57,988 nt of DNA. It comes from Chiloscyllium plagiosum (Eukaryota). Below the pieces are notes generated by a model. That model was not told the DNA's origin, ran no database searches, and saw only the letters and a list, made by a program, of their open reading frames with translations. Below are positions 2,683-55,685 of the stretch, piece by piece. Made by a program: the position numbers and the translations under genes. The stretch spans positions 26,788,231 to 26,846,218 of the forward strand of contig NC_057745.1 of assembly GCF_004010195.1 (NCBI RefSeq). Reading direction: 5' to 3'. Within the stretch, counting starts at the first letter, position 1. Each line of letters starts with the position of its first letter.

Positions 2683-3842
2683 ATACTCTTCCTGCTGTTG
2701 GAGTTGCAGGAGACACAATGTTTTGAGAGTTTGCCTTTCATCAAGGGGGTATTAATGGGAACTGACTGTTGGACCAGGAAGAGAGGGAGGACTGCAGGTG
2801 TGGAGGTCAGTCAAAACGTGGTGCTGGAAGAGCACAACTGCTCAGGCAGCATCTGAGGAACAGGAGAGTCAACATTTCAAGCATAAGCTTGGCATCAGGA
2901 ATGTGGGAGGGGTATCCAAGGGGAGGGGCTTGGACCAGGGTGAAAAGTAGCTGGGAATACAGGAGTTAGGAGGGATGGTGTTAGTGATACATCAAATACA
3001 TCCAAGGTGGTCTAAACTACTCACTGGAAGCAGCAAATATCTGCCATAACCCAATCATTCAGGAAACTCAGTTCATGGATTGGAGGGGTTAAACCCAGAG
3101 ATTGTACCCAGGAATAGTTTAAATTAAAGAAGGATGCAGAAACAAACCAGGTCCAGAGAGAAGACACCATGAATCACTGCTTTATTGACTATTCCAATCA
3201 CCAGTTGATGGGTGTTTGCTTGTGTCTCATGTACAGGAACAAGGCCAGCAATGAAGCAGAGATCAGACAGACAGCTGTCACAGTCAGGACTACCATCACA
3301 ACCAGCTCTGACTCCACACCTACAAAACAAGGAGAAACCACTGGTTACTGAGGGAAAACAGGGACAGAAAGGGAAACTAGCAGGCAGCCAACTCACCGCT
3401 TGGAGACCTCTCCTGCATCCTTCTGTCACCCTCAGTCAGGGGCTGAGTTGCCAGGTTGGTCAGCTCAGTATCCAGAATGATCAGGGGGCCAAGTGAGGCC
3501 TCCCCCTCCCACTTCAATCCAGCTTCCCTCTCTGCAAGATCAACATCCCAGTCAGGGAGGGGGAGTGGGAGTGAGGAGAGAGCCCCAATATCTAGAGGGT
3601 CAACATCCTACCAGCTTCAGAGTAAAGGTCTCTCCTTCCTCTGGAGGGGATCAGGATCTCCCTTGTGCTCCCACAGTTCCCCACATGGCAACAGGCACAA
3701 ATGTCACTGTCTGACTCCTCCAATGGGGTCCAGCTAAACAAACAGCCCATCAACCACATGTTGCATCACCTCTCCCAACAACATCCCTGAGGGACGGAGA
3801 GGGAACTTACATATTCTGCAGCTTCTGGAAAGTACAAGCTTT

Positions 3843-4187
3843 CAAAGTTTGGGAGAAGATTTGTAGCTCGGGTGCCCGTTATGGTTCTGTTCACCAAGCT
3901 GGGAATTTGTCAGTTGTCCGCTGCAGTGGTCGGTATATTGGGTCCAGGTCGATGTGCTTGTTGATGGAATCTGTGGATGAGCACAGATCGACCTGGACCC
4001 AATATACCGAGCACTGCAGCTACAGCTGGAACTGACAACCAGAAGCAGCAGATTCAAGCCACTATAAATGCCGGAGGAAGATCACAGAAGTGCTTCACAG
4101 GAGGCTCCCAAGCACTGAGGATGTCACCGAGACAGGGGACGAAATGTCTGCAACACAAATTCCAGCTCGGCAAACAGAACAACAGTC
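3843..4187. mobile_element. Penelope-like element fragment with inverted structure, inserted in exon 6 of ZP3 copy 1
   Basis: Flanked by an 8-bp direct repeat CAAGCTTT (3835-3842 and 4188-4195). It has an internal inverted repeat at 3921-4019. The minus strand reads SINKHIDLDPIYRPLQR, resembling a PLE ORF C-terminus. A hammerhead core CTGAGGA..GAAA lies at 4115-4144. Confidence 0.8.
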
Positions 4188-5756
4188 CAAGCTTTATTCC
4201 TGGAATCTCCCTGATCCACTGCAGCAACTCAGGTGACGGGTGATGAACATCTGAGGGAATGTCAGGGACAGTCACAAAAGTCAGTGTTTAGTGACTCCCT
4301 CCCCCGGGTGGAGAAGCACATCAGCAGATTCCTCGTACCAAGGATCGCTCATCTCCATAGAAACGGAAGGCATCCAGGTCAAACCGGAGTTTGTCCGGCT
4401 CACGCCCGTCTCTCGGCAACACAAAGGTTGAAAAGGAGTCCTCAGCTTTGCTGTCCAGGAGGCAACTGCAGATGGACAAAGGGCCATGAAGTGAATGGAG
4501 TGAAGCCATTGAGATGGGAGCAGCTGGAGAAAGCAGAGAGCTCCTTACCCATTGTAGTCAATGATGCTGTATCTCGGGGTGGAGTCCTTGTCTGGGCTCA
4601 GTGTAGCTACACAGCGATGTACAGCTTCAGGGGCACATGGTTGGCCATTGAAACCAATGCCTCAATGTGAATGAGGTCTCCCAGGGAGTAGACAGTGGAA
4701 GTGCGCTCTGTCAGCCAGTCACCTGAAGTACAGCAAGACAAGGGTTGGAGCCAATGGGTACAACTCCCAGAGAGAGAGACACCAGGAGATCCCTCCCCAG
4801 CCACCCATCACATACCATTCATTAGATGCAGGGAGAATGACAGATGCCCATGTTGCCCTTCCGGAGGTGGGGAAGGGAGGAAAGGGAGGGAAGAGAAGAG
4901 AGAAGGAGACAGGACAGCCATTTTGACAATCAAGTAAAGTTTCTCAGCTCAAATAACGACATGCAATGGGAACAACAGCACCACTGGTTCTCACAATGAC
5001 AGATCCAGGATAGTTTGGGATATGGGTCAGGAGGGTGGTGTAGATCAGGAAATCTCCAGTCATCTGAAAGACACCAGGTTAAGGAATGAGGGGCTAATGT
5101 GAAATGAGAAGGTTCTACACAGGGTTCACAATGACACCATCCCATTGGGACGATTCTTTCAGGGTGTGATAGGCTCAGGAGGCTGCTTCTACCAACAACC
5201 ACCAACTCCACCCCCACATTCCCAGAGCTGGAGAGACCACTGTTCAAGAGCAATAGGTCACAGGTCAAGGATTAGTCATTTAGGATCAGTTTAACAAGAT
5301 TGACATCATACCAAAGATCAGATTTGAATTCCTGATGCAAAAGTTAGTTTAAAGGAGGATGGGTGTTGGGCTTCCAGACAGTATTTGCAATAAATATTGA
5401 GGGAACAGGGACATTATTATTACAGAAAGAGGTTGCCAGGATCTTTTGGCCATCTAATTCCCAATGTAATCAGGAAACCTCTAGATTTGAGGAGAGATTA
5501 ATGATGCAATACCTGGAGATTAGCAGCAAGCTGAAACAATAAAAGCTGTGTCCAAGAGCTGAGAAAAGTAGAGAAAACAATAGGACACCAGAATGAAATC
5601 AAAACAGTTTTACCGACAGGCCAAGTGTGGAACCCCTCAAGTACAGAGCAGTCAGTTTATTTATACAATAACCCCCCCAGTCAGAAGGAGGTAAAGTCCA
5701 TTTACCTGATGAAATGGAAGATACTTTCCCCTCAAACTAAACACATCATGCTGCTA

Positions 5757-5848
5757 TCCTGATGAAGGGCTTCTGCCCAAAGTGTCAATTTTCCTGCTCC
5801 TCGGATGCTGACTGACCTGCTGTGCTTTTGCAGCATCACACTAATCTA
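5757..5848 (+). mobile_element. Short Penelope-associated repeat with a decayed hammerhead motif, in intron 1 of copy 1
   Basis: CTGATGAAGGGCTTCTGCCCAAAGTGTC followed by ctcctcggatgctg..acctgctgtgcttt. Absent from intron 1 of the other copies. Confidence 0.7.
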
Positions 5849-7504
5849 TGTTGCTAGATTAGTTGCATTCCTATAACATCTCTACAGCAAAACTACACAG
5901 TGGAATGATGCACTGTGGAAGGTCACTAAAACAATTCAGGAGAAAGTTCACAGTATCCAAACATTCACAAATCACCACATGATACCCAATTCATACTGAG
6001 AAAACATACATTGTTCTGTTACATGTATATAACCAGAAGCTTCCAAACCAGTGAACATGGCAGCACAAGACTAGAGAAGGAGAACAGTTAAGGCAGAGTC
6101 CAATCCAGGATAGGAACCTAGTCTGAGGTATTTGAGAAAGCAGGAGGAGAATGGTCCTTCCCAATATCAAAGATCTCAACCAGGAATCATTGACAGCCCT
6201 AACTTCCAGCAAGTGTAGACAACCCCCATTACCTGCAATCTGCTGCCGCACTCATGCAGCCCATAGTCAAAGAGGACAGTCTGGTTCTCAGGGTAGACCC
6301 TGGTTGGCCGACAACCTGCTGTCCCCAGGGTCAGGTCAGCAGCTTTAATCAGGTGCCTGGTTCCAAATAAACCAGCTGGGCCCTGACCAACAGGTTGTGC
6401 TCTCCACACTGCACCATCACAGTCTGCAGTGGGGACACACTCACAACCTCAGACATTCAGAAACTAGAACCAATAGGATGCCCATGAGGAGGCACTCTCT
6501 CAGGAACAGGGCTGGCTCTCACTATTGTCCGTGGAAACCTCTGGCTCAGAAACTGTTGCCATGTTTCAGAGCAACAAACAGCTCCAACTAACACCAACAA
6601 AGGGAACAAACCCCTCACTACAAAATCACCCATGATCACAAACAACACCACCATCCCCACACACCCCCAACCAGCTCCTTTTAGACACACAACCTGCTCT
6701 CACCTGACACCAATGTGACCAGAAGCAGCAACATTGAACCAATCAACCAGCCCCAATCTCTATAATTTCCACCAATGACTGAACTCATCGAGTTATTACC
6801 AGGAGGTAATATTTCGTTTGGACCAATAGGAGTGGCTGTGAGCTGCTGTGCTGTCACCTGACTGAATTCAGTTCCACAAGGTCTCATGGTGAAGGCCCCA
6901 TGGATACAATCATCAAACGTAGCTCATTGATCCAGGAGGGTGTCTGCTGGGTAATGCCCACCCTCACCCGAGGGACTGACAGTGAGACCCAAGGAGAGAA
7001 TATCTGAGGATGGGGTTTGGGTAGAACAAAGGGATTGACTTTATACTACACCTCCCCCTGGACGTGTTTGATGGAAGCAATATGGAAGAAGCTTTATTCT
7101 GTATCTAAACATGTCATGTCCTTGTCTGGGGAGTGTTTGATCGGCACAATGCAGGGAGAGCTCAACTTTCTGTTTATTTTTAATTCACAGCGTAGATGTG
7201 GTTTTACTCTGTATTTCACTGCGTGCTGTCTGTGTCCTGGGAGTCTTTGATGGGGACAGCATTCCTTCCAGTTTACAAGAATAGAGGAAGCTTTAGTTTC
7301 AGTTGCAGAGAGTAGAATCTTTTACTCTGTTTCTAACTCGGTGATGTCCCTGTATTGAAAGTGTTTGATGTAGACAGTGTAGCTATACATTTAGTTTAAA
7401 AGTGTAGAGACAGCTTTCTGTTCAGTGACAATGAGCAGAGGAAGCTCATGTTTCGAGTCCCACGCTGACCTTGCTCTGGCGGAGTTTCATGAGGATGGTA
7501 TTGT

Positions 7505-8215: not shown

Positions 8216-8930
8216 TATGGTTACCATCTTGTGATGCCACAAGGGGGGAGAACAGTTCAGTGTTTACTATGGTGGAGGATATGGAAGGTGTGGAATGTGG
8301 GAGAATAGACAGTGACATCTTCATAAATGTCCATATTAGAGGTGGTACTTGATTTCTTCAACCACATCCCCTGTCCAGGAGGGGTGAGTAGAGTTTACAT
8401 TCAACTCTGAACAAACGACTAGGGCCATCAATATTCAAAATTAGATTCCTACTCAGTCAAATGACCACAGCCCTTCAGGACTTGCCAACACAGCTTTATT
8501 GTTTAGGGGCATGATACTTTTCAGTCCAGTTTGAAATCCCAATACTGCAGAGGTCAGAAATCAGAGGGATAACAATTCACAAACACAACAGGACTGGCAG
8601 CATCTCAGGAGATGGTAACATTGGGAATCCACTTGGACACTTCTGAAGAGAATCAGAACAGACTGGAAACACCAGCTGTTCCTCCCTCAGACACTGCCAC
8701 ATCAGAGCCATTCCTCCTGCACATTCTGCAAACAGTGAGTTAATCAGAATGGAAAGCCCCTCTACTCACTGGGGTCGGTCGGTCGGTCAATCAACTCGAT
8801 CCCTAGATTGGAGGGGCTCAACCCAGGGATTGTACCCAGGAATATTTTAAAACTAAAAAAAAAGGAACATGAAACAAAACCAGCTCCAGACAGAAGAAAC
8901 CATGAATCACGGCTTTATTGACTATTTCAA

Positions 8931-19415: not shown

Positions 19416-22400
19416 TCACCAGTTGATGGGTGTTTGCTCGTGTCTCCTGTACAGGAACAAGGCCAGCAATGAAGCAGAGATCAGACAGACAGCTGTCACA
19501 GTCAGGACCACAATCACACCCAGCTCTGACTCCACACCTACAAAACAAGGAGAAACCAATGGTTACTGAGAGAAAACAGGGACAGAAAGGGAAACTAGCA
19601 GGCAGCCAACTCACCGCTTGGAGACCTCGCCTGCATCCTTCCGTCACCCTCAGTCAGGGGCTGAGTTGCCACATTGTTCAGCTCAGTATCCAGAATGATC
19701 AGGGGGCCAAGTGAGGCCTCCCCCTCCCACTTCAATCCAGCTTCACTCTCTGCAAAAATCAAACATCCCAGTCAGAGAGGGGGGAGTGGGGTGGGGATCC
19801 CCAACATCTAGAGGGTCCATGTCCTACCAGCTTCAGTGCCAAGGTCTCTCCTTCCCCTGAAAGGGAACAGCATCTCCCTTGTGCTCCCACAGTTCCCCAC
19901 ATGGCAACAGGCACAAATGTCACTGTCTGACTCCTCCAATGGGGTCCAGCTAAACAAGAGAAACAGCCCATCAACCACATGGTGCATCACCTCTCCCAAC
20001 AACAACATCCCTGAGGGACAGGGAGAGGGAACTTACATATTCTGCAGCTTCTGGAAAGTACAAGCTTTGTTCCTGGAATCTCCCTGATCCACTGCAGCAA
20101 CTCTCAGGTGACAGGTGATGAACATCTGAGGGACATATTCAGAACAGGTCAGTGTTTAGTGACTCCCTCCCCATTGTGGAGAACCACATCATCAGCATCC
20201 TCTTACCAAGGATCGCTCATCTCCATAGAAACGGAAGGCATCCAGGTCAAACCGGAGCTTGTCCGGCTCCCGCCCGTCTCTCGGCAACACAAAGGTTGAA
20301 AAGGAATCCTCAGCTTTGCTGTCCAGGAGGCAACTGCAGATGGACAAAAGGCCATGAAGTGAATGGAGTGAAGCCATTGAGATGGGAGCAGTTGGAGAAA
20401 GCAGAGAGCTCCTTACCCATTGTAGTCAATGATGCTGTATCTCGGGGTGGAGTCCTTGTCTGGGCTCAGTGTAGCTACACAGCGTTCAATGTACAGCTTC
20501 AGGGGCACATGGTTGGCCATTGAAACAGATGCCTCAATGTGAATGAGGTCACCCAGGGAGTAGACAGTGGAAGTGCGCTCTGTCAGCCAGTCACCTGAAG
20601 TACAGCAAGACAAGGGTTGGAGCCAATGGGTACAACTCCCAGAGAGACACCAGGAGATCCCTCCCCAGCCACCCATCACATACCATTCATTAGACGCAGG
20701 GAGAATGACAGATGCCCTTCTCCAGACCTGGTGGAGCTGAATGGGATCCAGGTGGGCTTGATGGGATTGCTGCTCACATTACCCTTCCTGGGGGGAGGGA
20801 CAGGGGAAAAAGGAGACAGGGCAGCCATTTTAGGCTAGTGTCAGACAACAGTAGCAGGGGATCATATTGACAATCAAGTAAAGATTCTCACCTCAAATAA
20901 CGACATTGAATGGGAACAACAGCACCATTGGTTCTCACAATGACAGATCCAGGATAGTTTGGGATGTGGGTCAGGTGGGTTGTGTAGATCAGGAAATCTT
21001 CAGTCATCTGAAAGACACCAGGTTAAGGAATGAGAGGCTGATCTGAAATGGTAAGGGTCTAGTGTTTACAATGACACCGTCCCATTGTGACTATTCTTAA
21101 GGGAGCGTGACAGGCCCAGGGGACGGCTTTCCCACACCAAGCTGGAGAGACCAGTATTCAAGGGCAACAGGTCACAGGTCAGGGGTTACTCATTTAGGAT
21201 CAGCTTAATGTATTACATCATTCCAAAAATCAGGATGGAATTCCTGATGCAAATGTTAGTTAAAATGATGTGTTGGGCTCCCAGGCAGAGTTAGAGATAA
21301 ATATTGATGGAACAGGGACATGGTGGTCAGCACTGCTGCCTCGCAGCACCAGAGACCCGTGTTCAATTCCCACCTCAGGCGACTGAGGAGTTTGCACATT
21401 CTCCCGGTGTCTGTGTGGGTTTCCTCCGGGTGCTCTGGTTTCCTCCCACAATCCCAAAAATGTGCAGGTTAGGTGAATCGTCCATGCTAAATTGCCCATA
21501 GTGTTAGGTGACGGGGTAAATGTAGGGGAATGGGTCTGTGTGGGTCACCCTTCAACATGGACATGTTGGGCCGAAGGGCCTGTATCCACACTAATCTAAT
21601 TAAAAAATGGTGATTGTTAACACAGGAACAAGGCTGCAGGGATCTTTCCGACGTCAACTCTCCATGTTATCAGGAAACCTCCAGATTGTGATCAGAGCTT
21701 GCTAGCAGAATACCAAGAGATTAATAGCAAGGAGACAGAAGAGTAGAGGAAACAACAATTAACTAGTATTAAATAAAAATACTTTTACCAACAGGTCAAA
21801 TGTAGAGCTCCTCAAGGAGGAGAGAGTCAATTTATTCATAAAATAGCCCCCAGTGGAAGGGAATCAAGTCAATTTGTCCTATGGGAATGGAACTACTTTC
21901 CCTCAAACTAGCCACAGGCCATGCTGCGATGAGTGATGTTCCTGTGACCTCCCTATTGAGAAAAGAATCATTATCAAAAACCACACTTTAGAAGAAGGTC
22001 ACTGAACCAAATTTGGAGAAAGTCCTTAGTATCAAAACACCACCCACATATCACCACATGATACCCAATTCATACTGACAAAACATACATTGTAACAGAA
22101 CAACCCCTGTAATCAGGGGATTCTAAACCAGTGAGAATGGGAGCACAAGGCTAGGAGACAATCCAGGAGAGGAACCTGGACTGAGGATTTGAAAAAGCAG
22201 GAGAATGGTCCTTCTCAAGATCAACAATCTCTCAGCCAGGAACCTTCTGCAGCCCAAACTTCCAGCAAGTGTAGACAACCCCCATTACCTGCAATCTGCT
22301 GCCACACTCATGCAGCCCATAGTCAAAGAAGACAGTCTGGTTCTCAGGGTAGACCCTGGTTGGCCGACAACCTGCTGTCCCCAGGGTCAGGTCAGCAGCT

Positions 22401-28020: not shown

Positions 28021-29954
28021 GGTCTTTTGAAATCGTATGGAAGTGTACAATGTCAAGAAAGGTATGGATGGGATGAATGTGCTCAGTCTTTTTCCCAGGG
28101 TTGAGGAGTCAAGGACTAGAGGGCACCAGTTTAAGGTTAGAGGGAAGAGAATGAAAGGGAATTGAGGGGCAATGATTTCACACAGAGGGAGGTCCGCATA
28201 TGGAATAAGAAGCCAGCAGAGGTGGTTGAGGCAGGTACATAAACAACGTTCAAAGTGCATTTGGACAAATTCATGGATAGGAATGGATTTGAAGGCTGTG
28301 GACCATGTACAGGGAAATGGGGTTCGTGGGGATGGACATTTTCATAGGCAAGGACCAATTTGCCAAGGGGAGGAGGTTCCACAATTTCCCCACCCTCAAT
28401 GATGGGGGAACCCAGCACAAAGGATAAGGCTGAAGCATTTGCAACGACCTGCAGCCAGTAATCTCCAAAGGGACAATCGATTGTAGTCCCCAGCATCACT
28501 GATACCTGTCTTCAGTCAGTACTATTGACTCTACGTGACAGAGAAACAGCTGCAGATATTGGATACTGTGAAGCCAATGCACCCTGACTAACATTGTGGG
28601 AATAAGGTGAAAGAGCTGTGATCCTGAACATGCCGTGTCCCTATCCATTCTGTTCCAGTACAGATACAACTGCAGCATCTACCTGGAAATGGAGATAATT
28701 AACCAGTCGTGTCCTGTTGACAAAAAGTGCCAATTCCTCCCCTATCAATCCACTCTCAATCACAAGTGGAGGGATGTAAGCTATTGTCAATAGTGTTATC
28801 AAGGCACATGTCCTCCACACTAACCTGTTCACTGATGCTCAGTCTGTGTTCCACCTCCTGATCTCAGTACAGCTTGGTCCAAATGAGTAAAAGAGCTGAA
28901 CTTAAGAGGGGAAGTGAGGGTGACTGTTTTAAGACTAAGGCAGAACTTAATTGAACAATTTACCAAGGAGTCCTCAGAAAATTGGGCTCAATGGGATTAG
29001 AAAAATCTCTTTGCTGGTTGGAGTCATGTCCTGCTCAAAGAAAGATGGTTCTGGTTATCTCTTAGACACAACCATGTCAACTGCTCCATCAAAGACCTTC
29101 CCTCCATCAGAATGTCAGAAGTGGGGATGTTTGCTCATGATTGCCTAATGTTCAGCCCCATTGACAACGTCATAGATACTGAAACAGTCCCTGTTCAAAT
29201 GCAACAAGACCTGAACAACATTCGCATTCAGAACACACAACTGTCAGGCAATGACCGTCTCCAACAAGGGCAAATCTCACTATCACACCATGACAGTCTC
29301 TATGACATTCCCATTGCTCAATCCCTCACTATTAAACATCCTGTGGCTTCTCTGTCTCGGCTGGGATTTGTTGCCTGTCCCTAATTGCCCTTGATTTGGT
29401 TGGTTTGCTCAGCTATTTCAGAATCAGCGATATTGCTGTGGGTCTGGAGTCACATTTAGGCCAGACCAGGTCAAGATGGTAGATTCCCTTCCCTAATGGG
29501 AATTGTGAATGATAAAAGATTAGTTTCACAGTCACAATTACTAAGAGTAGATATTCGCAAAAAAGATAGAACACAAAAATCGCTCAGTGACTACAATGAG
29601 ATTTGAGAATTTTAGCCTCCAGCCTCAGATGATTAACCTGACTCACTGAATTCCTGTCTCAGTAACACTACCATTATGCCATTTGTTCCACCCACCTGTA
29701 GACAGAAGCCTGAGCCTGAGACAGATGGCTCAGTGATAGGCATCAGTGTCAAGGAATCAGGAGTTTAATTAACATCGAATCCCTGCAGTGTGGAAACAGG
29801 CCGTTCAGTCCAACAAGTCCACACTGACCCACTGAAAAGTAAGCCACCCAGACCCATCCCCTTACTCCACATTTACCCCTGACTAATGCACCTAACCTAA
29901 TCATCCCTGAACACAATGGTCCATTTAGGATTGCCAGTTAACTTAACCTGCACA

Positions 29955-32720
29955 TAGAATCATAGAGATGTACAGCACGGAAACAGATCCTTCGGTCCAA
30001 CCCGTCCATGCTGACCAGATATCCCAACCCAATCTAGTCCCACCTGCCAGCACCCAGCCCATATCCCTCCAAACCCTTCCTATTCATATACCCATCCAAA
30101 TGCCTCTTAAATGTTGTAATTGTACCAGCCTCCACCACTTCCTCTGGAGACAGGCAGGAGGCTGGGGGAACAGAACAAGGCAGGCAGCATCAGGAGGGAC
30201 AGGCAGGAGGCTGGAGGAACACAGCAAGGCAGGCAGCATCAGGAGGGACAGGCNNNNNNNNNNNNNNNNNNNNNNNNNNNNNNNNNNNNNNNNNNNNNNN
30301 NNNNNNNNNNNNNNNNNNNNNNNNNNNNNNNNNNNNNNNNNNNNNNNNNNNNNNNNNNNNNNNNNNNNNNNNNNNNNNNNNNNNNNNNNNNNNNNNNNNN
30401 NNNNNNNNNNNNNNNNNNNNNNNNNNNNNNNNNNNNNNNNNNNNNNNNNNNNNNNNNNNNNNNNNNNNNNNNNNNNNNNNNNNNNNNNNNNNNNNNNNNN
30501 NNNNNNNNNNNNNNNNNNNNNNNNNNNNNNNNNNNNNNNNNNNNNNNNNNNNNNNNNNNNNNNNNNNNNNNNNNNNNNNNNNNNNNNNNNNNNNNNNNNN
30601 NNNNNNNNNNNNNNNNNNNNNNNNNNNNNNNNNNNNNNNNNNNNNNNNNNNNNNNNNNNNNNNNNNNNNNNNNNNNNNNNNNNNNNNNNNNNNNNNNNNN
30701 NNNNNNNNNNNNNNNNNNNNNNNNNNNNNNNNNNNNNNNNNNNNNNNCCCATTGGCCCATCTGATCAAGATCCTGTTGTAATCTGAGGTAACCCTCTTTG
30801 CTGTCCACTACACCTCCAATTTTGGTGTCATCTGCAAACTTACTAACTATACCTCGTATGCTCACATTCAAATCATTTATATAAAAGTGACAAAAAAAAT
30901 AGAGGACCCACCACCGATCCTTGTGGCATTCCACTGGTCACAGGCCTCCAGTCTGAAAAACAACCCTCCACCACCCTCTGTCTTCTCCCTTTGAGCCAGT
31001 TCTGTATCCAAATGGCGAGTTCTCCCTGCATTCCATGAGATCTAACTTTGCTAACTAGTCTCCCATGGGGAGTCTTGTTGAACACCTCACTGAAGTCCAT
31101 CTCTATCACCATCTACTGCTCTGCCCTCATCAATCCTCTTTGTTACTTCTTCAAAAAACTCAATCAAGTTTGTGGGACATGATTTCCCACGCACAAAGCC
31201 ATGTTGACTATCCCGAATCAGTCCTTGCTTTTCCAAATACATGTACGTCCTGTCCCTTAGGATTCCCTCCAACAACTTGCCCACCACCGAGGTCAGGCTC
31301 ACTGGTCTATAGGTCCTTGGCTTGTCCTTACCACCCTTAAACAGTGGCACCACGATAGCCAACCTTCAGTCTTCCAGCAACTCACCTGTGACTATTGAGG
31401 TTACAAGGTGTCCAGCAACCGCTTTCTTATCTTCCCTCAAAATTCTGGGGAATACCTGATCAGGTCCTGGTGATTTATCCATTTCAAGACATCCAGCACA
31501 TCTTCCTCTGTAATATGGACGTTTTTCAAGATGTCACCATCCATTTCCCTACATTCTATATCATCCAAGTCCTTTTCCACAGTAAATACTGATGCAAAAT
31601 ATTCGTTTAGTATCTCCCCGGTCTCCTGCGGCTCCACACTAAGGTCGCCTTGCTGTACTTTGAGGGGCCAGTTCTCTCCCTAGTTACCCTTTTGTCCTTA
31701 ATATATTTGTAAAAACCATTTGGATTCTCCTTAATTCTATTTGCCAAAGCTAGTTCATGTCCCCTTTTTGCCCTCCTGATTTCTCTCAAGTATATTCCTA
31801 TCACCTTTATACTCTTCTAAGGAGTAATTGATCTATCCTGTCTATTTCTGACATAAGCTTCCTTATTTTTCTGAACCAAACCCTCAATTTCTTTAGTCAT
31901 CCAGCATTCCCTACACCTACCAGCCTTCCCTTTCACCCTGACTGGAATATACTTTCTCTGGATTCTCGATATCTCATTTCTGAAGGCTTCCCATTTTCCA
32001 GCCATCCCTTTACCTGCAAACATCTGCTCCCAATCGGCTTTTGAAAGTTCTTGCCTAATACTGTCAAAATTGGCCTATCTCCAATTCAGAACTTCAACAT
32101 TTAGATATGGTCTATCCTTTTCCATCACTATTAAAAAATTAATAGAATTATGGTCGCTGGCCCCAAAATGCTCCCGCACCTGCCCTGCCTTATTTCCCAA
32201 GAGTCGTCAAGCTTAGCAACCTCGAGTAGGTTCATCTGCATAATGAATCAACAAATTTTCTTGTACACACTTCACAAATTCCTCTCCATCTAAACCCTTA
32301 ACACTATGACAGTCTCAGTCTATGTTTGGCAAGTTAAAATCCCCTACCATAACTACCCTATTATTCTTACAGATAACTCAGATCTCCTTACAAGTTTGTT
32401 TCTCAATTTCCCTCTGACTATTGGGAGGGTCTATAATACAATCCCAATGAGGTGATCATCCCTTTCTTATTTCTCAGTTCAACCCAAAAAACTTCCCTGG
32501 ATGTATTCCCAAGAATACCCTCCCAGAGTACAGCTGCAACGATATCCCTCATCAAAAACATCACTCCCCCTCCTCTCTTGCCTCCCTTCCTGTCACGTTT
32601 GTATTGTGGAACTTCAAGCTGCCAGTCCAGTCTATCATTGACGCAGGTTTCTGTAATTGCTATGGTATCCCAGTCACATGTTCCTAACCACACCCTGAGT
32701 TCATCTGCTTTCCTGTTAGT
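29955..32720 (-). mobile_element. CR1/HER1-like LINE (endonuclease-RT-3' tail) inserted into an HE1-like SINE, gapped
   Basis: DTIAITET..RDRKGGKRGGGV..GLYYRP; YRPVSLTSVVGK..SQHGF; SKFADDTKIGG; 3' tail ..ctctatgattctatg at 29955. SINE halves lie at ~29775-29954 and ~32725-32852. Confidence 0.88.
30146..30253. repeat. 49-bp minisatellite running into a gap
   Basis: caggcaggaggctgg.ggaaca..caaggcaggcagcatcaggaggga recurs at 30151, 30200 and 30249. Confidence 0.8.
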
Positions 32721-35120
32721 TGTTGTATTGTGGGAGGAAACCCACTCAGATGGAGGGAGAACTCCACACAGATCATTGGCCAATGCTGGGATCGAACCCA
32801 GGTCCCTGGTGCGATGATGCAGTAATGCTAACCACTGCACTGCTATGCTGCCAGCGAGAATGCAAGAGAAATCTTCGCAGAGTGTGTGGAAACACAGTTC
32901 ATGTTTTGTGTTGAAATGGAGATAATTAACCAGTAGTGTCCTGTTGACAAAAAGTGAGATAAATCCAACCTTGCCAATTCCTCCCCCACCAACCCACTCT
33001 CAATCACAAGTGAAGTGATGGAAGGTTTTGTCAACAGTGTTATCAAGGCACATGTCCTCCACACTAACCTGTTCACTGATGTTCAGTCTGTGTTCCACCA
33101 GGGCTACCCAGCTCCTGATCTCAGTACAGATTGGTCCAAATGAGTAAAAGAGCTGAACTTAAGAGGGGAAGTGAGGGTGACTGTTTTAAGACCAAGGCAG
33201 AATTTGATTGCACAATTTACCAAGGAGTCCTCAGAAAATTGGACGCAGTGGGATTAGAAAATACCTCTTTGCTGGTTGGAGTCATGCCCAGCACAAAGAA
33301 AGATGGTTCTGGTTATCAATGTTCAATCACCACATTCTCAGGACATCTCTGCCAGAGTTCCTCAAGGTACTCACTTAGACACAACCATGTCAACTGCTGC
33401 ATCGAAGACCTTCCCTCCATCAGAATGTCATGAGTGGGGATGTTTGTTTATGATTACCCAATATTCAGCCCCAATGACAACATCACAGATACTGAAACAG
33501 TCTCTGTTCAAGTACAGCAAGACCTGAACAACATTCACATTCAGAACACACAACTGTCAGGCAATGACTGTCTGAAACAAGGGAAAATCTCACTATCACA
33601 CCATGACAGTCTCCATGACATTCCCATTGCTCAATCCCTCACTATTAACATCCTGTGGCTTCTCTGTCTTGGCTGGGAGTTGTTGCCAGTCCTTAATTTA
33701 TTTGGTTTGCTCAGCTGTTTACTACATCAAGTCAAGATGGTAGATTTCCTTCCCTGATGGGAATTGTGAACGAGATGGGCGCTTATAAAAGATTAGCTTC
33801 ACAGTCACTATTACCGAGAGTAGATATTGCAACCACCTGAGGACAGAAGCCTAATCCTCAGACAGATGGCTCAGCGATAGCCATTAGTGTCAAAGAATCC
33901 TAAGTTTAATTAATATAGAAACCCATCAGTGTGGAAACAGTCCATTCAACCCAACAAGTCCACACTGACCCTCTGAAAGGTAAGCCACCCAGACCTTTAT
34001 TCGACAAAGACGACTGACGCTCCACCTAACCTCTACATGAAAAACTATGGTCAATTTGGCTTAGCCAGCTCATCTAACCTGCACATCTTTGGACTGTGGG
34101 ACGAAACCCACACAGACACAGGGAGAACTCCACGGAGATAATTGCCCAAGGATCAAACCCAGGTCCCAGGGGCTGTGAAGGAGCAGTGCAAACCACTGTG
34201 GCATTATGCTGCCCAAGAGAGTGTAGGAAAAATCTCAGTAGAGTCTGGAGAGATAGTTCATGTTTATGATGGATGTGACTCTTGAAAGGTTAGCAGTGTC
34301 TGTCCACCGATGCAGCCAGACAACCTGAGTTTTCCCAGCATTCTGTGGTTTCAGATTTCCAGCCTGTGCAGTATTTTGCTTTTAGTCCTGAGTGTAGGTT
34401 CCTTCCAGAGTCTTCAGCCTGTGCCAATGCTATGGTTTTAAGAATTATATTTTGTCCTGGTTGGATGGAGAGAGTCTTTGAGGCAAAAGCAGGGAACTAC
34501 CTGTGGAAAACCAGGAAACACCTTTCAGCTGTTGCTGCTTCGGCCTTGACGTGGCAAATATTTTCTCCACTCCCCTCAGTCACAAAATCCAGGGTGGGGC
34601 AGGGGGGGGAAGAGGATACTCTTCCTGCTGTTGAGTTGCAGGAGACAATGTTTTGAGAGTTTGCCTCTCAGAGGAGGGTGGGGGGTGTTTATTGGAACAG
34701 ACTATATTGCACCAGGAAGAGAGGGAGGACTGCAGGTGTGGAGGTCAGTCAAAATATTGTGCTGGAAGAGCATAACTGCTCAGGCAGTATCTGAGGAACA
34801 GGAGAGTCAACATTTCAAGCATAAGCTTGGCATCAGGAATGTGGGAGGGGTATCCAAGGGGAAGGGCTTGGACCAGGGTGAAAAGTAACTGGGAATACGG
34901 GAGTTAGGAGGGATGGTGTTAGTGATACATCCAAGGTGGTCTAAACTGCTCACTGGAAGCAGCAAATATCTGCCATAACCCAATCATTCAGGAAACTCAG
35001 TTCATGGATTGGAGAGGCTAAACCTAGAGATTGTACCCAGGAATAGTTTGAAGGAAGGATGCAGAAACTAAACCAACTCGAGACAGAGGACATGAATCAC
35101 TGCTTTATTGACTATTCCAA

Positions 35121-38100
35121 TCACCAGTTGAAGGGTGTTTGCTTGTGTCTCCTGTACAGGAACAAGGCCAGTGAAGCAGAGATCAGACAGACAGCTGTCA
35201 CAGTCAAGACCACTATCACAACCAGCTCTGACTCCACACCTACAAAACAAGGAGAAACCAATCGTTACAGAGGGAAAACAGGGACAGAAAGGGAAACTAG
35301 CAGGCAGCCAACTCACCGCTTGGAGACCTCTCCTGCATACTTCCGTCACCCTCAGTCAGGGGCTGAGTTGCCAGGTTGTTCAGCTCAGTATCCAGAATGA
35401 TCAGGGGGCCAAGTGAGGCCTCCCCCTCCCACTTCAATCCAGCTTCACTCTCTGCAACATCAAACATTCCAGTCTGAGAGGGGGGAGTGGGGTGGGGATC
35501 CCCAACATCTAGAGGGTCAATGTCCTACCAGCTTCAGGGCCAAGGTCTCTCCTTCCTCTGAAAGGGAACAGCATCTCCCTTGTGCTCCCACAATTCCCCA
35601 CATGACAACAGGCACAAATGTCACTGTCTGACTCCTCCAATGGGGTCCAGCTAAACAAGAGAAACAGCCCATCAAACACATGATGCATCACCTCTCCCAA
35701 CAACATCCCTGAGGGACAGGGAGAGGGAACTTACATATTCTGCAGCTTCTGGAAAGTACAAGCTTTGTTCCTGGAATCTCCCTGATGCACTGCAGCAACT
35801 CTCAGGTAACAGGTGATGAACATCTGAGGGACACAGAACAAGTCAGTGTTTAGTGACTCCCTCCCCAGGGTGGAGAAGCACATCAGCAGCTTCCTCTTAC
35901 CAAGGATCGCACATCGCCATAGAAACGGAAGGCATCCAGGTCAAACCGGAGCTTGTCCGGCTCCCGCCCGTCTCTCGGCAACACAAAGGTTGAAAAGGAG
36001 TCCTCAGCTTTGCTGTCCAGGAGGCAACTGCAGATGGACAAAGGGCCATGAAGTGAATGGAGTGAAGCCATTGAGATGGGAGCAGCTGGAGAAAGCAGAG
36101 AGCTCCTTACCCCAAGGTCTCTCCTTCCTCTGGAGGGGGATCAGGATCTCCCTTGTGCTCCCACAGTTCCCCACATGGCAACAGGCACAAATGTCACTGT
36201 CTGACTCCTCCAATGGTGTCCAGCTAAACAAGAGAAACAGCCCATCAACCACATGGTGCATCACCTCTCCCAACAACAACATCCCTGAGGGACAGGGAGA
36301 GGGAACTTACATATTCTGCAGCTTCTGGAAAGTACAAGCCTTGTTCCTGGAATCTCCCTGATCCACTGCAGCAACTCTCAGGTGACAGGTGATGAACATC
36401 TGAGGGACACAGAACGAGTCAGTGTTTAGTGACTCCCTCCCCATTGTGGAGAATCACATCAGCAGCTTCCTCTTACCAAAGATCGCTCATCACCATAGAA
36501 ACGGAAGGCATCCAGGTCAAACCGGAGCTTGTCCGGCTCCTGCACGTCTCTCGGCAACACAAAGGTTGAAAAGGAGTCCTCAGCTTTGCTGTCCAGGAGG
36601 CAACTGCAGATGGACAAAGGGCCATGAAGTGAATGGAGTGAAGTCATTGAGATGGGAGCAGCTGGAGAAAGCAGAGAGCTCCTTACCCATTGTAGTCAAT
36701 GATGCTGTATCTCGGGGTGGTGTCCTTGTCTGGGCTCAGTGTAGCTACACAGCGATCAATGTACAGCTTCAGGGGCACATGGTTGGCCATTGAAACAGAT
36801 GCCTCAATGTGAATGAGGTCTCCCAGGAAGTAGACAGTGGAAGTGCGCTCTGTCAGCCAGTCACCTGAAGTACAGCAAGTCAAGGGTTGGAGCCAATGGG
36901 TACAACTCCCAGAGAGAGACACCAGGAGATCCCTCCCCAGCCACCCATCACATACCATTCATTAGACGCAGGGAGAATGACAGATGCCCTTCTCCAGACC
37001 TGGTGGAGCTGAATGGGATCCAGGTGGGTTTGATGGGATTGCTGCTCACATTGCCCTTCCTGGGGAAAGGAGACGGGGCAGCCATTTTAGGACAGTGTCA
37101 GACAATAGCAGCAGGGGATCATAGGGCTTGATGGGATTGCTGCTCACATTGCCCTTCCTGGGGGAAGGAGACAGGGCAGCCATTTTAGGACAGTGTTAGA
37201 CAACAACAGCAGGGGATCATATTGACAATTGATTAAAGATTCTCACCTCAAATAACGACATTCAATGGGAACAACAGCACCATTGGTTCTCACAATGGCA
37301 GATCCAGGATAGTTTGGGATGTGGGTCAGGTGGGTTGTGTAGATCAGGAAATCTTCAGTCATCTGAAAGACACCAGGTTAAAGAATGAGAGGCTGATCTG
37401 AAATGGTAAGGATCTACAGTGTTTACAATGAGACTGTCCCATTGTGACAATTATTTAGTGAGCGTGACAGGCCCAGGAGATTGCTTTCCCACACCAAGCT
37501 GGAGAGACCAGTATTCAAGGGCAAAAGGTCAGGGGGTTAGTCATTTAGGATCAACTTAATGTTTCTGGTTTCCTCCCATCATTCCAAAAATCAGGATGGA
37601 ATTCCTGATGCACATGTTGGTTAAAATGATGTGTTGGGCTCCCAGGCAGAGTTAGATATAAATATTGATGGAACAGGGACATGGTGGTTAGCACTGCTGC
37701 CTCAAAGCGCCAGAGACCCAGGTTCAATTCCCACCTCATGCGACTGACGAGTTTGCACATTCTCCCAGTGTCTGTGTGAGTTTCCTCCGGCTGCTCTGGT
37801 TTCCTCCCACAATCCCAAAAATGTGTAGCTTAGGTGAATTGGCCATGCTAAATTGCCCATTGTGTTAGGTGACAGGGTAAGTGCAGGGGAACGGGTCTGG
37901 GTGGGTCACCTTTCAACATGGACTTGTTGGGCCGAAGGGCCTGTTTCCACACTATGTAAATCTAATTTTAAAAAAAAAAGGTGATTGTTAACACAGGAAC
38001 AAGGCTGCAGGGATCGTTCCAACATCAACTCTCTATGTTCTCAGGAAACCTCCAGATTGTGAGCAGAGATTGCTAGCAGAATACCAAGAGATTAATAGCA

Positions 38101-40985: not shown

Positions 40986-42476
40986 TCTCGAATCATACAA
41001 TCCCTACAGAATGGAAACAGGCCATTTGGCCCAACAAGTCCACACTGACCTTCTGAAAGATAACCCACCCAGACTCAATCCCCTCCCCTGCTCCCCTATT
41101 ACGCTACATGTCCCCTCACTAACACATCCCTGAGGAAAATTTGCATGGCCAATCCACTGAACCTGCACATCTTTAGACAGTGGCAGGAAACCAGAGCACC
41201 CAGAGTAATCCCACACAGACACAAGGAGAGGTGCCCGAGACTGGAATCAAACCCCTGTCCCTGGTGTAGTGCTAACCAATGTGCCACCGTGCTGCCCCAT
41301 CTTCCCTTTTAGAGTGAATGTAAAATTCTCTGAACAAACCGCATCTGCATTTACCCATCACCAACCCAGCTGCCTTGCCCCCATCCCCAAGGCATCTATC
41401 TATCGCAATCCGAGCTTCCTTGCCCCCACCCCTAACCTTCTATTTATCTCTGAGGCCCCTTTCCCAATCCACAATCCTGATGAAGGGCTTATACCCGAAA
41501 CCAACTCTCCTGCTCCTCAGATGCTGCATGACCTGCTGTGCTTTTCCAGGGCCACACACTTTGACTGTGATCTCCAGAATCTGCAGTCCTCACTTTCTCC
41601 CTCAACACCATCCCCCAACAAACTCCACCAGAGCAAGGTCAGTGTGGGACGCGATACATGAGCTTCCTCTGCTCATTGTCACTGAACAGACAGCAGCCTC
41701 TTCACTTTTAAACTAAATGTACAGCTACACTGTCTACATCAAACACTTTCAATACAGGGACATTCTTGAGTTAGAAACAGAGTAAAAGATTCTATTCTTT
41801 CCAACTGAAACAAAATCTTCCACTTTTCTTGAAAACTGGAAGGAAAGCTGTCCCCATCAAAGGTTCCCAGGTCAGAGACAGCACACGGTGAAATACAAAG
41901 TAAAACTGCCTCGAGTCTGTGAATTAAAAGGAAAGTGAAAGTAAAGCTCTCCCTGCATTGTCCCGATCAAACACTCCCCAGACTGGGACATGACAAGTTA
42001 ACATACAGAATAAAGCTTCTTCTCTGTTGACTCTATCAAACACTTACAGGGGGAGGCATAGTATAAGGTCAGTCCCTTTGTTTTACCCAAACCTCACCCT
42101 CAGACAATCTCTCCGTGGGTCTCACTATCAGTCCCTCAGGTGAGGGAGGGAGGCAGGACCCAGCAGATACCCTCTTGGATCGATGAGTTACGTTTGATGA
42201 TTGTATCCATGGGGCCTTCACTGTGAGACCTTGTGGAGCTGAATTCAGTCAGGTGACAGCACAGCAGCTCACAGCCACTCCTATTGGTCCAAATGAGATA
42301 GGCCCTCCCGGTAATAACTCGATGAGTTCAATCATTGGTGGAAATTGTAGAGATTGAGGCTGGTTGATTGGTTCAATGTTGCTGCTTCTGGTCACATTGG
42401 TGTCAGGTGCGTGCAGGTTGTGTGTATAAAAGGAGCTGGTTGCGGGTTTGTGGGGATGGTTGAGTTGTTTGTGATC

Positions 42477-45400: not shown

Positions 45401-45749
45401 TGTTTGATGTTGCAGAGAGTGATGCTGGATTGAAGTGGGAGGGGGAGGCCTCACTTGGCCCCCTGATCATTCTGGATACTGAGCTGACCAACCTGGCAAC
45501 TCAGCCCCTGACTGAGGGTGACAGAAGGATGCAGGAGAGGTCTTCAAGGGGTGAGTTGGCTGCCTGCTAGTTTCCCTTTCTGTCCCTGTTTTCCCTCAAT
45601 AACCATTGGTTTCTCCTTGTTTTGTAGGTATGGAATCAGAGCTGGGTGTGATGGTGGTCCTGACTGTGACAGCTGTCTGTCTGATCTCTGCTTCATTGCT
45701 GGCCTTGTTCCTGTACAGGCGACACAAGCAAACACCCATCAACTGGTGA
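42477..45749 (+). pseudogene. zp3: ZP3-like copy 5, pseudogene
   Basis: Exons 1-3 are open (42477-42878, 44182-44297, 44386-44489). The exon 4 acceptor is AG>GG (44579-44580). A 1-nt deletion in exon 4 gives HVP* (TGA 44673-44675), and exon 6 has two 2-nt deletions (~45052, ~45064). The exon 2 acceptor is a weak GAG. TATA is at 42425-42431, the stop at 45747-45749 and AATAAA at 45761-45766. Confidence 0.9.
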
Positions 45750-51530: not shown

Positions 51531-52438
51531 AGCCCATCATCCCTTCAAAATGAAATTTCAGTTCCCTCAAAACCCCACACATGCATCTACCTATTGCCAT
51601 CCTAGCTAACTTACCCCCACCCCGAGCCTCCTGTTTATCTCTCAGCCCCCTTTCCCAATCCACAATCCTGATGAACAGCTCCTACTGGGAAAGTGGACTC
51701 TCATGCTCCTCGGATGCTGCATGACCTGTTGTGCTTTTCCAGTGCCACACTTTTCGACTCTGGTCTCCAGCATCTGCACACCTCACTTTCTTCCACAACA
51801 CCATCCTCATGAAACTCCGCCAGAGCAAGGTCAGCGTGGGACTCGATACTTGAGCTTCCTCTGCTCATTGTCACTGAACAGAAAGCTGTCTCTACACTTT
51901 TAAACTAAAAGTACAGCGACAATGTCTACATCAAACACTTTCAATAAGGGACATCACCGAGTTAGAAACAGAGTAAAAGATTCTAATCTCTGCAACTGAA
52001 ACTAAATCTTCCTGTATTTTTGAAAACTGGAAGGAAAGCTGTCCCGATCAAAGGCTCCCAGGACACAGACAGCATGCAGTGAAATACAGAGTAAAACCAC
52101 ATCTACGCTGTGAATTAAAAATAAACAGAAAGTTGAGCTCTCCCTGCATTGTGCCGATCAAACACTCCCCTGACTGGGACATGACAAGTTTAGATACAGA
52201 ATAAAGCTTCTTCCATATTGCCTCCCTCAAACAATTCCAGGGGGAGGTATAGTATAAGGTCAATCCCTTTGTTCTACCCAAACCCCATTCTCAGACAATC
52301 TCTCCTTGGGTCTCACTGTCAGTGTCCTCGGGTGAGGGTGGGCAGGACCCAGCAGACACCCTCCTGAAACAATGAGCTACGTTTGATGATTGTATTCATG
52401 GGGCCTTCACCATGAGACCTTGTGGAGCTGAATTCAGT

Positions 52439-52620
52439 CAGGTGACAGCACAGCAGCTCACAACCACTCCTATTGGTCCAAATGAAATAGGCCATCCTGG
52501 TAATAACTCAATGAGTTCAGTCATTGGTGGAGATTGTAGAGATTGGGTCTGGTTGATTGGTTCAATGTTGCTGCTTCTGGTCACATTGGTGTCAGGTGAG
52601 AGCAGGTTGTGTGTATAAAA
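52439..52620 (+). promoter_or_regulatory. ZP3 copy 6 core promoter
   Basis: E-box CAGGTG at 52439-52444 and 52593-52598; ATTGG at 52472, 52523, 52542, 52556 and 52585; TATAAAA at 52614-52620, starting 52 bp before the ATG. Confidence 0.72.
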
Positions 52621-52665
52621 GGAGCTGGTTGGAGGTGTGTGGAGATGGTTGAGTTGTTTGTGATC

Positions 52666-55600
52666 ATGGGTGATTTTGTAGTGAGGGGTTTGTTCCCTTT
52701 GTTGGTGTTAGTTGGAGCTGTTTGTTGCTCTGAAACATGGCAACAGTTTCTGAGCCAGAGGTTTCCATGGACAATAGTGAGAGCCAGCCCTGTTCCTGAG
52801 AGAGTGCCTCCTCATGGGGATCCCATTGGTTCTAGTTTCCGAATGTCTGAGGTTGGGAGTGTGTGCCCACTGCAGACTGTGATGGTGCAGTGTGGAGAGC
52901 ACAACCTGCTGGTTAGGGCCCAGCTGGATTTATTTGGAACCAAGCACCTGATTAAAGCTGCTGACCTGACCCTGGGGACAGCAAGTTGTCAGCCAACCAG
53001 GGTCTACCCTGAGAACCAGACTGTCCTCTTTGACTATGGGCTGCATGAGTGTGGCAGCAGATTGCAGGTAATGGGGGTTGTCTACACTTGCTGGAAGTTT
53101 GGGCTGCAGAAGGTTCCTGACTATAACCCTTAATGTGATAATATTGAGGACTAACCTCCTACTCTCAAATCACCAGATGAGGTTCCTCTCCTGGATTGGT
53201 CTGTGCCTGAACTGTTCTCCATCTCTTGCCTTGTGCTCCTATTCTCATTGGTTTAGAAGCCTCTGATTACAGGAGTTGTTCTGTTACAGTGTATGTTGTG
53301 AGTTGGGTATCATGTGGTGGCTTGAGTGGTGTTTTGATACTGTGAATGTTCTCCTGACTTCAGTTAGTGACCTTCTATAGTGTGGCTTTCTCCATTATGA
53401 ATACTTTCCCAATAGTGAGGTCACAGAAACACAGCTCTTTGCAGCATGACTTCTTTATTTTGAAAGAAAGTAGCTCTGTAACCATCAGGCAAATTGTCTT
53501 GACTCCCTCCCACTGGGGGTGCTCGTCTATGAATAAATTGACTGTCCTTGTCCTTGAGGAGCTCCACATTCAGCCCATTGGTAAAACTGTTCTGGTTAAA
53601 TATTTCCTCTATTCTTCCCATCTCGTGCACACTGTTTTATTGCCTCACCTTGCTATTAATCTCTCTGCATTCTGCTGGTAATCTGTTTATAATCTGAAGG
53701 TTTCATGATTACACTGGGAGATGATGATGGCTAAAAGATTCCTGGAGCCTCTTCCCTGTGATAACAATCACAACATCCCTGTACCCTCAATATTATCTCT
53801 CATTCAGTCTGGGAGCCCAACACACAACCTCCTTTCGACCAACTTTTGGTTCAGGAATTCTCATCCTGATGTTTGGAACGATGTTATACATAGTTAAATT
53901 GATCCTAAATAACTAACCTGTGAACTATTGCAATTGAATACTGGTTTCTCCAGCTCAGGGTGTGGGAAAGCAGTCTCTTGGCCCTGAGCCTGTTGCACTC
54001 AATAAGGAATTGGTCTAACGGGATGGTGTCATTGCGAACCCTGTGTAGAACCTTCTCATTTCTGATCAGCTCCTCACTCCTTATCCTGGTGTCTTTCAGA
54101 TGACTGGAGATTTCCTGATCTACACCACCCACCTGACCCACATCCCAAACTATCCTGGATCTGTCATTGTGAGAACCAATGGTGCTGTTGTTCCCATTCA
54201 ATGTCGTTATTTGAGGTGAGAATCTTTACTTGATTGTCAATATGATCTCCTGCTGCTATTGTCTGACATTGTCCAAAAATGGCTGCCCTGTCTCCTTCCT
54301 CCAGGAAGGGCAATGTGAGCAGCAATCCCATCAAGCCCACCTGGATCCCATTCAGCTCCACCAGGTCTGGAGAAGGGCATCTGTCATTCTCCCTGCGTCT
54401 AATGAATGGTATGTGATGGGTGGCTGGGGAGGGATCTCCTGGTGTCTCTCTCTGAGTTGTACCCATTGGCTCCAACCCTTGTCTTGCTGTACTTCAGGTG
54501 ACTGGCTGACAGAGCGCACTTCCACTGTCTACTCCCTGGGAGACCTCATTCACATTGAGGCATCTGTATCAATGGCCAACTACGTGCCCCTGAAGCTGTA
54601 CATTGATGGCTGTGTAGCTACACTGAGCCCCGACAAGGACTCCACCCCAAGATACAGCATCATTGACTACAATGGGTAAGGAGCTCTCTGCTTTCTCCAG
54701 CTGCTCCCACCTCAATGGCTTCACTCCATTCACTTGGCCCTTTGTCCATCTGCAGTTGCCTCCTGGACAGCAAAGCTGAGGACTCCTTTTCAACCTTTGT
54801 GTTGCCGAGAGACGGGCGGGAGCCGGACAAGCTCCGGTTTGACCTGGATGCCTTCCGTTTCTATGGAGATGAGCGATCCTTGGTAAGAGGAAGCTGCTGA
54901 TGTGGTTCTCCACCCTGGGGAGGGAGTCACTAAACACTGACTTGTTCTGTGTCCCTCAGATGTTCATCACCTGTTACCTGAGAGTTGCTGCAGTGGATCA
55001 GGGAGATTCCAGGAACAAAGCTTGTACTTTCCAGAAGCTGCAGAATATGTAAGTTCCCTCTCCCTGTCCCTCAGGGATGTTGTTGTTGGGAGAGGTGATG
55101 CATCATGTGGTTGATGGGCTGTTTCTCTTGTTTAGGTGGACCCCATTGGAGGAGTCAGACAGTGACATTTGTGCCTGTTGCCATGTGGGTAACTGTGGGA
55201 GCACAAGGGAGATGCTGTTCCCTTTCAGAGGAAGGAGAGACCTTGTCCCTGAAGCTGGTAGGACATTGACCCTCTAGATGTTGGGAATCCCCACCCCACT
55301 CCCCCCTCTCTGACTGGAATGTTTGATCTTGCAGAGAGTGATGCTGGATTGAAGTGGGAGGGGGAGGCCTCACTTGGCCCCCTGATCATTCTGGATACTG
55401 AGCTGACCAATCTGGCAACTCAGCCCCTGACTGAGGGTGACGGAAGGATGCAGGAGTGGTCTCCAAGTGGTGAGTTGGCTGCCGCCTCGTTTCTCTTTCT
55501 GTCCCTGTTTTCCCTCAGTAACCAGTGGTTTCTCCTTGTTTTGTAGGTGTGGAGTCAGAGCTGGTTGTGATGGTGGTCCTGACTGTGACAGCTGTCTGTC

Positions 55601-55668
55601 TGATCTCTGCTTCATTGCTGGCCTTGTTCCTGTACAGGAGACACAAGCAAACACCCATCAACTGGTGA
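52666..55668 (+). CDS. zp3: Zona pellucida sperm-binding protein 3-like, copy 6, apparently intact (464 aa, 9 exons)
   Basis: Exons 52666-53067, 54100-54215, 54305-54408, 54498-54675, 54756-54882, 54960-55048, 55136-55257, 55335-55469 and 55547-55668 total 1395 nt, GT-AG, in an open frame. It has the 12 ZP3-type Cys, RGRR furin site, EHP (ASLGPLIIL) and TM ([25 protein letters not shown]). An alternative in-frame ATG lies at 52645. Confidence 0.94.
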
Positions 55669-55679
55669 TTGGAATAGTC

Positions 55680-55685
55680 AATAAA
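55680..55685 (+). terminator. Polyadenylation signal of copy 6
   Basis: AATAAA starts 12 nt after the stop, at the same position in all six copies. Confidence 0.8.

Follow-up and report, generated by a model that had tools for sequence, protein, structure and literature searches.

A probably old and probably shark-shared array of ZP3 egg-coat genes in Chiloscyllium plagiosum, with exons more alike than the first intron

The stretch of Chiloscyllium plagiosum DNA analysed here (57,988 nucleotides, hereafter the window) carries six copies of a ZP3-like egg-coat gene, four on the minus and two on the plus strand (Table 1). They were located by aligning back the nine exons derived from the open frames of the last unit (423, 116, 104, 178, 127, 89, 122, 135 and 123 nt), and the exon identity of these matches across the window (91–100%) is far above chance. 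By self-comparison the window is made of repeated units, with 89% of its non-N bases finding a match elsewhere in it, in agreement with the claim of the first-pass annotation that the flanking repeats were duplicated along with the genes. The same annotation had the units continuing to both edges; this holds for the right edge, but on the left the unit stops at 2683, bases 1–2500 have no self-match, and an integrase fragment and a gap are found instead. The unit-flank sequence between copies 3 and 4 is possibly a deleted unit, and remains of LINEs similar to the one listed in Table 1 fill other spacers of the array. There are six N gaps in the window. Directly past one of them lies a 173-bp tandem duplicate with 100% identity (26365-26713), and a second pair of segments, 46046-46392 and 46742-47089 (95.7% alike), flanks a gap of 347 N; both are likely assembly artefacts. 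Rfam gave no RNA family in the window, and no flanking gene lies within it.

Table 1. Features of the window (positions are counted from its first letter).
Feature	Position	Strand	Remarks
Decayed pol fragment of retroviral type, with integrase zinc-binding domain (PF17921)	1-1400		left end of array
ZP3 copy 1	3197-6654	-	pseudogene; from alignment of copy-6 exons to window
Copy 1 exon 6 insertion, 341 bp	3843..4183	.	same junction in contig of related organism B
ZP3 copy 2	8930-11565	-	pseudogene; from alignment of copy-6 exons to window
ZP3 copy 3	19415-22711	-	intact; equals XP_043533501.1
Copy 3 exons	22711-22289, 21007-20892, 20787-20684, 20594-20417, 20333-20207, 20125-20037, 19949-19828, 19749-19615, 19537-19415	-	
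Copy 3 intron 1 insertion, about 250 bp	21320..21610	.	limits approximate; missing in copy 6
LINE fragment	26559-28341	-	pieces of endonuclease PF14529 and reverse transcriptase PF00078
Unit-flank sequence without ZP3 gene body	28028..33830	.	between copies 3 and 4; LINE fragments mixed in
ZP3 copy 4	35120-39095	-	rearranged; 470-aa frame via exon skipping (XP_043533507.1)
Copy 4 internal duplication, about 575 bp	35540..36686	-	intron 4 to exon 7; halves 95.5% alike
Copy 4 tandem duplication, 98 bp	37026..37221	-	93% alike; decoy exon-3 acceptor
ZP3 copy 5	42456-45750	+	pseudogene; from alignment of copy-6 exons to window
Copy 6 promoter	52435..52644	+	TATA box about 30 nt before first ATG; three E-box hexamers in the 180 nt that precede the same ATG
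ZP3 copy 6	52645-55669	+	intact; equals XP_043533503.1
Copy 6 exons	52645-53067, 54100-54215, 54305-54408, 54498-54675, 54756-54882, 54960-55048, 55136-55257, 55335-55469, 55547-55669	+	
Copy 6 intron 1	53068..54099	+	appears to escape homogenisation; 12-19% diverged from other copies
Copy 6 polyadenylation signal	55680..55685	+	
Downstream unit flank	56168..57988	+	reaches right edge

In copies 3 and 6 all eight introns are bounded by GT and AG, and the exons join into frames of 471 amino acids, or 464 from the second ATG. Each product agrees at 471 of 471 residues with its C. plagiosum RefSeq protein (exon 1 of copy 6 taken separately is also a 100% match), so that both the intactness of these two copies and the shark origin of the DNA, proposed earlier from the letters alone, are confirmed. 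The second ATG would be the likelier start, because the first lies only about 30 nt past the TATA box; it is also the start used in the first-pass annotation, and in run X18 of a related organism, here called organism B, one spliced contig starts 3 nt ahead of the second ATG, the end of a fragment being no proof of a start. The promoter is conserved between the copies (4–8% divergence). Its E-boxes are candidate sites only and carry little weight; E-boxes are tied to FIGLA in the consulted sections of a study of catfish ZP3 genes (PMC13704971). The first introns of copies 4 and 5 are as long as that of copy 3.

The Pfam search with the proteins of copies 3, 4 and 6 returned PF23344 at residues 83–178, PF00100 at 203–339 and no other family, that is, a ZP-N and a ZP-C domain in tandem without an extra N-terminal domain, as in the ZP3 (ZPC) egg-coat proteins. 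Mammalian ZP3 differs in having eight exons, against nine here. Aligned with chicken ZP3, which is also the best PDB match (3NK3, E 1.5e-99), the cysteines comprise C83, 115, 136 and 176 in ZP-N, C253, 275, 321 and 338 in ZP-C, and a ZP3-type cluster of C358, 360, 361 and 366. A signal peptide and a membrane segment are predicted from hydropathy (hydrophobic windows starting at residues 4–11 and 432–443), and there are a basic furin motif at 377–380 and two N-glycosylation motifs. The domain pair, cysteine cluster, furin site and membrane anchor are all shared with vertebrate ZP3, including the chicken and mammalian proteins and ZP3.1 of Feng et al. 2018 (as far as covered in excerpts of PMC6262864). 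In two trees the chondrichthyan sequences fall together with ZP3 of lungfish, coelacanth and tetrapods, that of marmot included (FastTree 0.96, SH-aLRT 86), and the shark copies would likely belong to the ZP3.1 subfamily, in trees that took in no named ZP3.2 or ZP3.3 reference and that place the ray-finned fishes outside the clade, against the species tree. The copies are not one-to-one vertebrate orthologues; such orthology was what the first-pass annotation had named as refuting its reading.

Copies 1, 2 and 5 are broken, as had been noted. Copy 1 combines a stop and frameshifts with a lost exon-2 donor and a mostly deleted exon 3, its exon 6 carries the insert, and its TATA box is altered; copy 2 has had its promoter and the 5' 246 nt of exon 1 replaced and lacks exon 3 entirely; copy 5 has an exon-4 acceptor changed from AG to GG and three frameshifting deletions (one of 1 nt, two of 2 nt). 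The exon-6 insert of copy 1, which may resemble the 3' terminus of a Penelope-like element, has a 3' junction that recurs at the same position in organism B (loose end at 55017, about three differences in 29 letters), so that this lesion is likely older than the divergence of the two organisms. Faster decay of the broken copies was looked for through private codon changes in the window copies and was not found, the ratio of synonymous to non-synonymous changes being 14:13 in the broken copies and 15:14 in the others, on small numbers; without an amino-acid excess, the broken copies fit recent breakage as well as continued conversion. Copy 4 is indeed rearranged, with two internal duplications, but the comparison also indicates that it is not necessarily non-functional: with all exons read through a stop falls at codon 426, whereas three exon-skipping paths lead to a frame of 470 amino acids, and one of these paths is a RefSeq model.

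One may ask whether the six copies are real or could be haplotigs or mis-joins of a gapped short-read scaffold. The six N gaps and the perfectly identical 173-bp duplicate are what such a scaffold might yield, and neither the duplication junctions of copy 4 nor the deletion of copy 2 was found among the contigs of two other runs (X2 and X12), where absence is uninformative. On the other hand, the exons differ by 3–4% and intron 1 by up to 19%, there are private insertions, the copies stand in both orientations, assemblies of other species also hold many copies, and the copy-1 lesion recurs in organism B. Haplotigs or mis-assembly, which the first-pass annotation had named as grounds for refuting its reading, appear very improbable. 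Single junctions, such as those of copy 4, could be wrong in the assembly, although duplication halves that are 93% and 95.5% alike would argue against a simple assembly stutter there.

The RefSeq entries XP_043533500-508, named 'zona pellucida sperm-binding protein 3-like' in C. plagiosum, represent the same genes, copies 3, 4 and 6 being the annotated ones. Several isoforms among XP_043533500-506 are chimaeric and join exons 1–7 of one copy to exons 8–9 of neighbouring copies: isoform X1 at the copy-3 locus takes its final exons 8–9 from the pseudogene copy 2, and isoforms X2 and X3 at the copy-6 locus take theirs from copies outside the window. It follows that the annotation undercounts the copies. 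The exon 8–9 sets that end the two copy-6 isoforms find no exact match among the window copies, and neither does a 208-aa model on this chromosome that represents a 5' half-gene, which indicates further copies outside the window and bears out the expectation that the array is larger than what was analysed. Four more partial ZP3 models of C. plagiosum lie on small scaffolds, and one of them falls in a second subclade.

Sequencing runs from other sources allowed the exon structure to be compared with spliced contigs. In run X18 of organism B only exons are covered, and GT-AG joints were found at introns 1, 2, 3, 4, 5, 7 and 8 (seven of the eight); low coverage of intron 1 was left out of account, and the run records are filtered. 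The ZP3 family is spliced as predicted in this related species. One spliced contig of the same run, with a joint at 54213-54496, skips exon 3 in a way that resembles the copy-2 deletion, and could come from a transcribed pseudogene. In run X12, also of organism B and otherwise DNA-like, a contig with a joint at 54881-54959 lacks intron 5 exactly (GT-AG), which could reflect a processed copy, intron loss or RNA in the run. Contig depth is uneven, with single contigs at 275–416 against others at 15–47 in X12 and 245 against 15–20 in X2, and hints at many copies, depth here not being a copy number. The single-cell RNA run X23, which carries the label of the window's own species and of which 6% was read, gave 0 reads, a result that says nothing about expression.

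The age of the array is judged very differently from its coding and its non-coding DNA. Exons differ by 3.0–4.5% between copies, with dS of 0.04–0.07 in all 15 pairs, whereas intron 1 differs by 16.6–19.0% in 11 of the 15 pairs, by 11.7% between copies 2 and 6 and by 5.7–7.1% within the group of copies 3, 4 and 5. Introns 4, 5, 7 and 8 differ by 3.8–8.5% throughout; set against them (4.8–8.5%), intron 1 of the 11 pairs gives Fisher p 3e-3 to 7e-8, and against dS p is about 1e-9 in two pairs tested. Local identity served as a filter on the intron alignments, and the short introns may be constrained. The six copies and nine exons of the first-pass annotation stand, but near-identity is a property of the exons only and does not extend to intron 1 or the flanks. 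In a 150-bp profile against copy 6 there are two low blocks, promoter plus exon 1 and exons 2–9, with mostly 1–7% divergence, separated and flanked by sequence that is mostly 10–30% diverged. Moreover, the closest partner of copy 6 shifts along the unit, from copy 1 upstream to copy 2 in intron 1 and to copies 1 and 4 downstream. Copy 1 is near to copy 6 in both flanks (3–11%) and far in intron 1 (17–29%), while copy 4 is near in the 3' flank (4–8%) and far upstream (13–18%). At 59 informative sites (1978 of 5398 alignment columns kept), 53% of pairs are compatible, and neighbouring sites are more compatible than in shuffled order (p 0.0004).

Because intron 1 differs by 17–19% in most pairs against 4–7% at synonymous sites, and the flanks pair differently, the copies appear to be old, with exons homogenised by recombination; the mosaic likely reflects older duplicates that have exchanged sequence by gene conversion and unequal crossing-over. 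Coding divergence alone looks like a recent burst, and on the sequence comparison the non-coding DNA says otherwise. Part of the array does seem truly younger, as copies 3, 4 and 5 are 6–7% apart everywhere. Within-species homogeneity and recombination mosaics, both traits of concerted evolution, are present, and so is one trait of birth-and-death evolution, pseudogenes among functional copies (three of six are broken). The other trait of birth-and-death, clustering between species with even divergence, is absent: the shark copies group by species, and their exons are homogenised relative to intron 1. Birth-and-death, as first proposed for this locus, is therefore borne out by dead copies in a tandem array and is incomplete as an account of exons kept alike against a mosaic background.

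Protein searches and listings of 20 clusters gave at least 232 named chondrichthyan records, 15 having been dropped as isoforms or duplicates. These are counts of annotation records rather than true copy numbers, come from a search that depends on shared words, and may include haplotigs and partial models. Among the matches listed, nine shark species have at least 11–31 records each, with large sets in six shark orders: Heptranchias and Pristiophorus (at least 31 each), C. punctatum (at least 28), Mustelus (at least 22), Stegostoma (at least 21), Heterodontus (at least 14), Hemiscyllium and Carcharodon (at least 12 each) and S. torazame (at least 11). Four other sharks have few (Cetorhinus at least 6, S. 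canicula at least 5, Rhincodon at least 4, C. plagiosum itself at least 9), and each of nine batoid species has 1–4 and Callorhinchus 3, again among the matches listed. Clustering is implied by scaffold length, which is mostly the same for all records of a species (14 of 14 in Heterodontus, 12 of 12 in Carcharodon, 20 of 21 in Stegostoma). Some Mustelus proteins are spread over a number of small scaffolds, possibly as haplotigs. Whale shark, zebra shark, manta and electric ray also have divergent ZP3 paralogues that seem to be low-copy and fall outside the clade of the array (P0305, P0449, P0319 and P0411). Two shark-type ZP3 proteins on 1,415-bp contigs are filed under Salmonella enterica, MBS2599508.1 (P0008), which groups with Carcharodon in the tree, and MCY5961867.1 (P0509); they are probably cloned cDNA or contamination.

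On the tree of the 217 of 232 records that cover enough of the ZP module, the species label changes 34 times (minimum 22; shuffled mean 162; 0 of 200 shuffles as low). Two subclades are common to Chiloscyllium and Hemiscyllium, and ray copies pair between species (4 changes in 4 rows for Mobula birostris, 3 in 3 for Pristis). Species clustering is also expected if the lineages had expanded separately, and the tree cannot discriminate between the two. Copy number might then be near neutral at an unstable, repeat-rich locus that has expanded independently and repeatedly in shark lineages by ordinary birth-and-death. The grouping of copies by species or genus would fit this, as would the death of half of the window copies, the LINE fragments in the spacers and the uniform distance among copies 3, 4 and 5; yet duplication alone does not give an intron 1 that has diverged three to four times as far as synonymous sites, large sets occur in six shark orders with subclades common across genera, and the ZP module is under purifying selection. 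We regard repeated independent expansion as unlikely. The array is likely neither recent nor peculiar to C. plagiosum, and the recent, independent amplification suggested at first pass is not supported, given the intron 1 divergence and the multi-copy sets in most shark orders sampled. The shark copies do form a chondrichthyan clade apart from ray-finned fish sequences, which makes their expansion separate from that of teleosts.

We consider it fairly probable that the sharks share an old ZP3 array whose promoters and exons are homogenised by conversion or unequal crossing-over while copies die, and which is kept for dosage. The tandem duplicates would have a single origin early in shark history, repeated conversion and crossing-over would have kept promoter and exons alike, and the extra copies, presumably expressed in oocytes, would raise the output of one structural egg-coat protein. 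ZP precursors are secreted, anchored in the membrane, cut by furin and polymerised with ZP1/4- or ZP2-type partners, and the intact shark precursor would take the same course, through its C-terminal membrane anchor and furin site, into the envelope. The ZP module has dN/dS of 0.24–0.48, and this purifying selection favours dosage over recognition diversity, the other purpose offered at first pass, by which the copies would be retained because they vary how sperm recognise the egg coat. In favour of recognition diversity one could cite a dN/dS of about 1 outside the module (0.63–2.19, on 2–7 synonymous differences per pair) and the positively selected ZP3 sites across teleosts and across mammals described in the parts consulted of PMC8362008; most of the regions near 1, however, are signal and propeptide parts that, to judge from the furin site, would be cut off, the module itself is conserved, and homogenisation of the exons runs counter to any upkeep of diversity. 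The dN/dS values lend recognition diversity no support, and we hold it to be quite improbable.

Dosage as the reason for the copies is plausible, and it is also what has been proposed for teleosts. Excerpts of PMC13704971 describe catfish arrays of 20–22 tandem ZP3 genes with pseudogenes and oocyte-only expression, and 12–44 ZP3 genes per teleost genome in tables that, as consulted, have no shark row. The arrays of channel and blue catfish (chromosome 2), zebrafish, stickleback, carp and salmon share with the shark one their tandem copies, mixed orientation and interspersed pseudogenes; exon-limited homogenisation is seen in the shark array, whereas none is reported for the catfish arrays in those excerpts. 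The same source counts against dosage, as ZP copy number and envelope thickness in teleosts are not significantly related (rho 0.286, p 0.493), and it gives ZP3 as single copy in human and mouse, compared with tens of records in sharks. Lineage-specific ZP duplication is frequent, with 3–33 ZP genes per vertebrate, according to the consulted text of Feng et al. 2018 (PMC6262864), from whose main text the word 'shark' is absent, while its species table may list chondrichthyan counts. The portions consulted of PMC8455134, PMC1845163 and PMC13361971 contain nothing on shark ZP3 number, and our search, in a literature largely outside the subscription journals, turned up no account of a ZP3 array in sharks or of its copy number.

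The shark genes were already annotated automatically, and ZP3 arrays with pseudogenes were already published for teleosts; the shark array works like those, except that besides the birth and death of genes its exons evolve in concert. Both mechanism and gene family are familiar, and the lead of greatest interest is the apparent difference between sharks and rays. Sharks have internal fertilisation, unlike the teleosts of the comparison, and very large eggs, and their follicles have an unusually thick zona pellucida, in contrast with those of rays. More tentatively, then, it is possible that sharks, and not rays, have kept an array of tens of copies since their early history by exon-limited concerted evolution, and that its dosage builds this thick zona pellucida. 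If so, the split between sharks and rays would offer a natural way to test whether envelope thickness is set by ZP copy number, a matter left open by the teleost data. For those who use genome annotations, automated models merge neighbouring copies into false isoforms, and the contrast between intron 1 and exons warns that judging such arrays by coding identity greatly understates their age. ZP3 amplification has so far been treated as a teleost trait, and a large, apparently shark-wide, independent array, set against the few copies of rays and chimaeras, would provide a second case in which to ask what makes egg-coat genes amplify.
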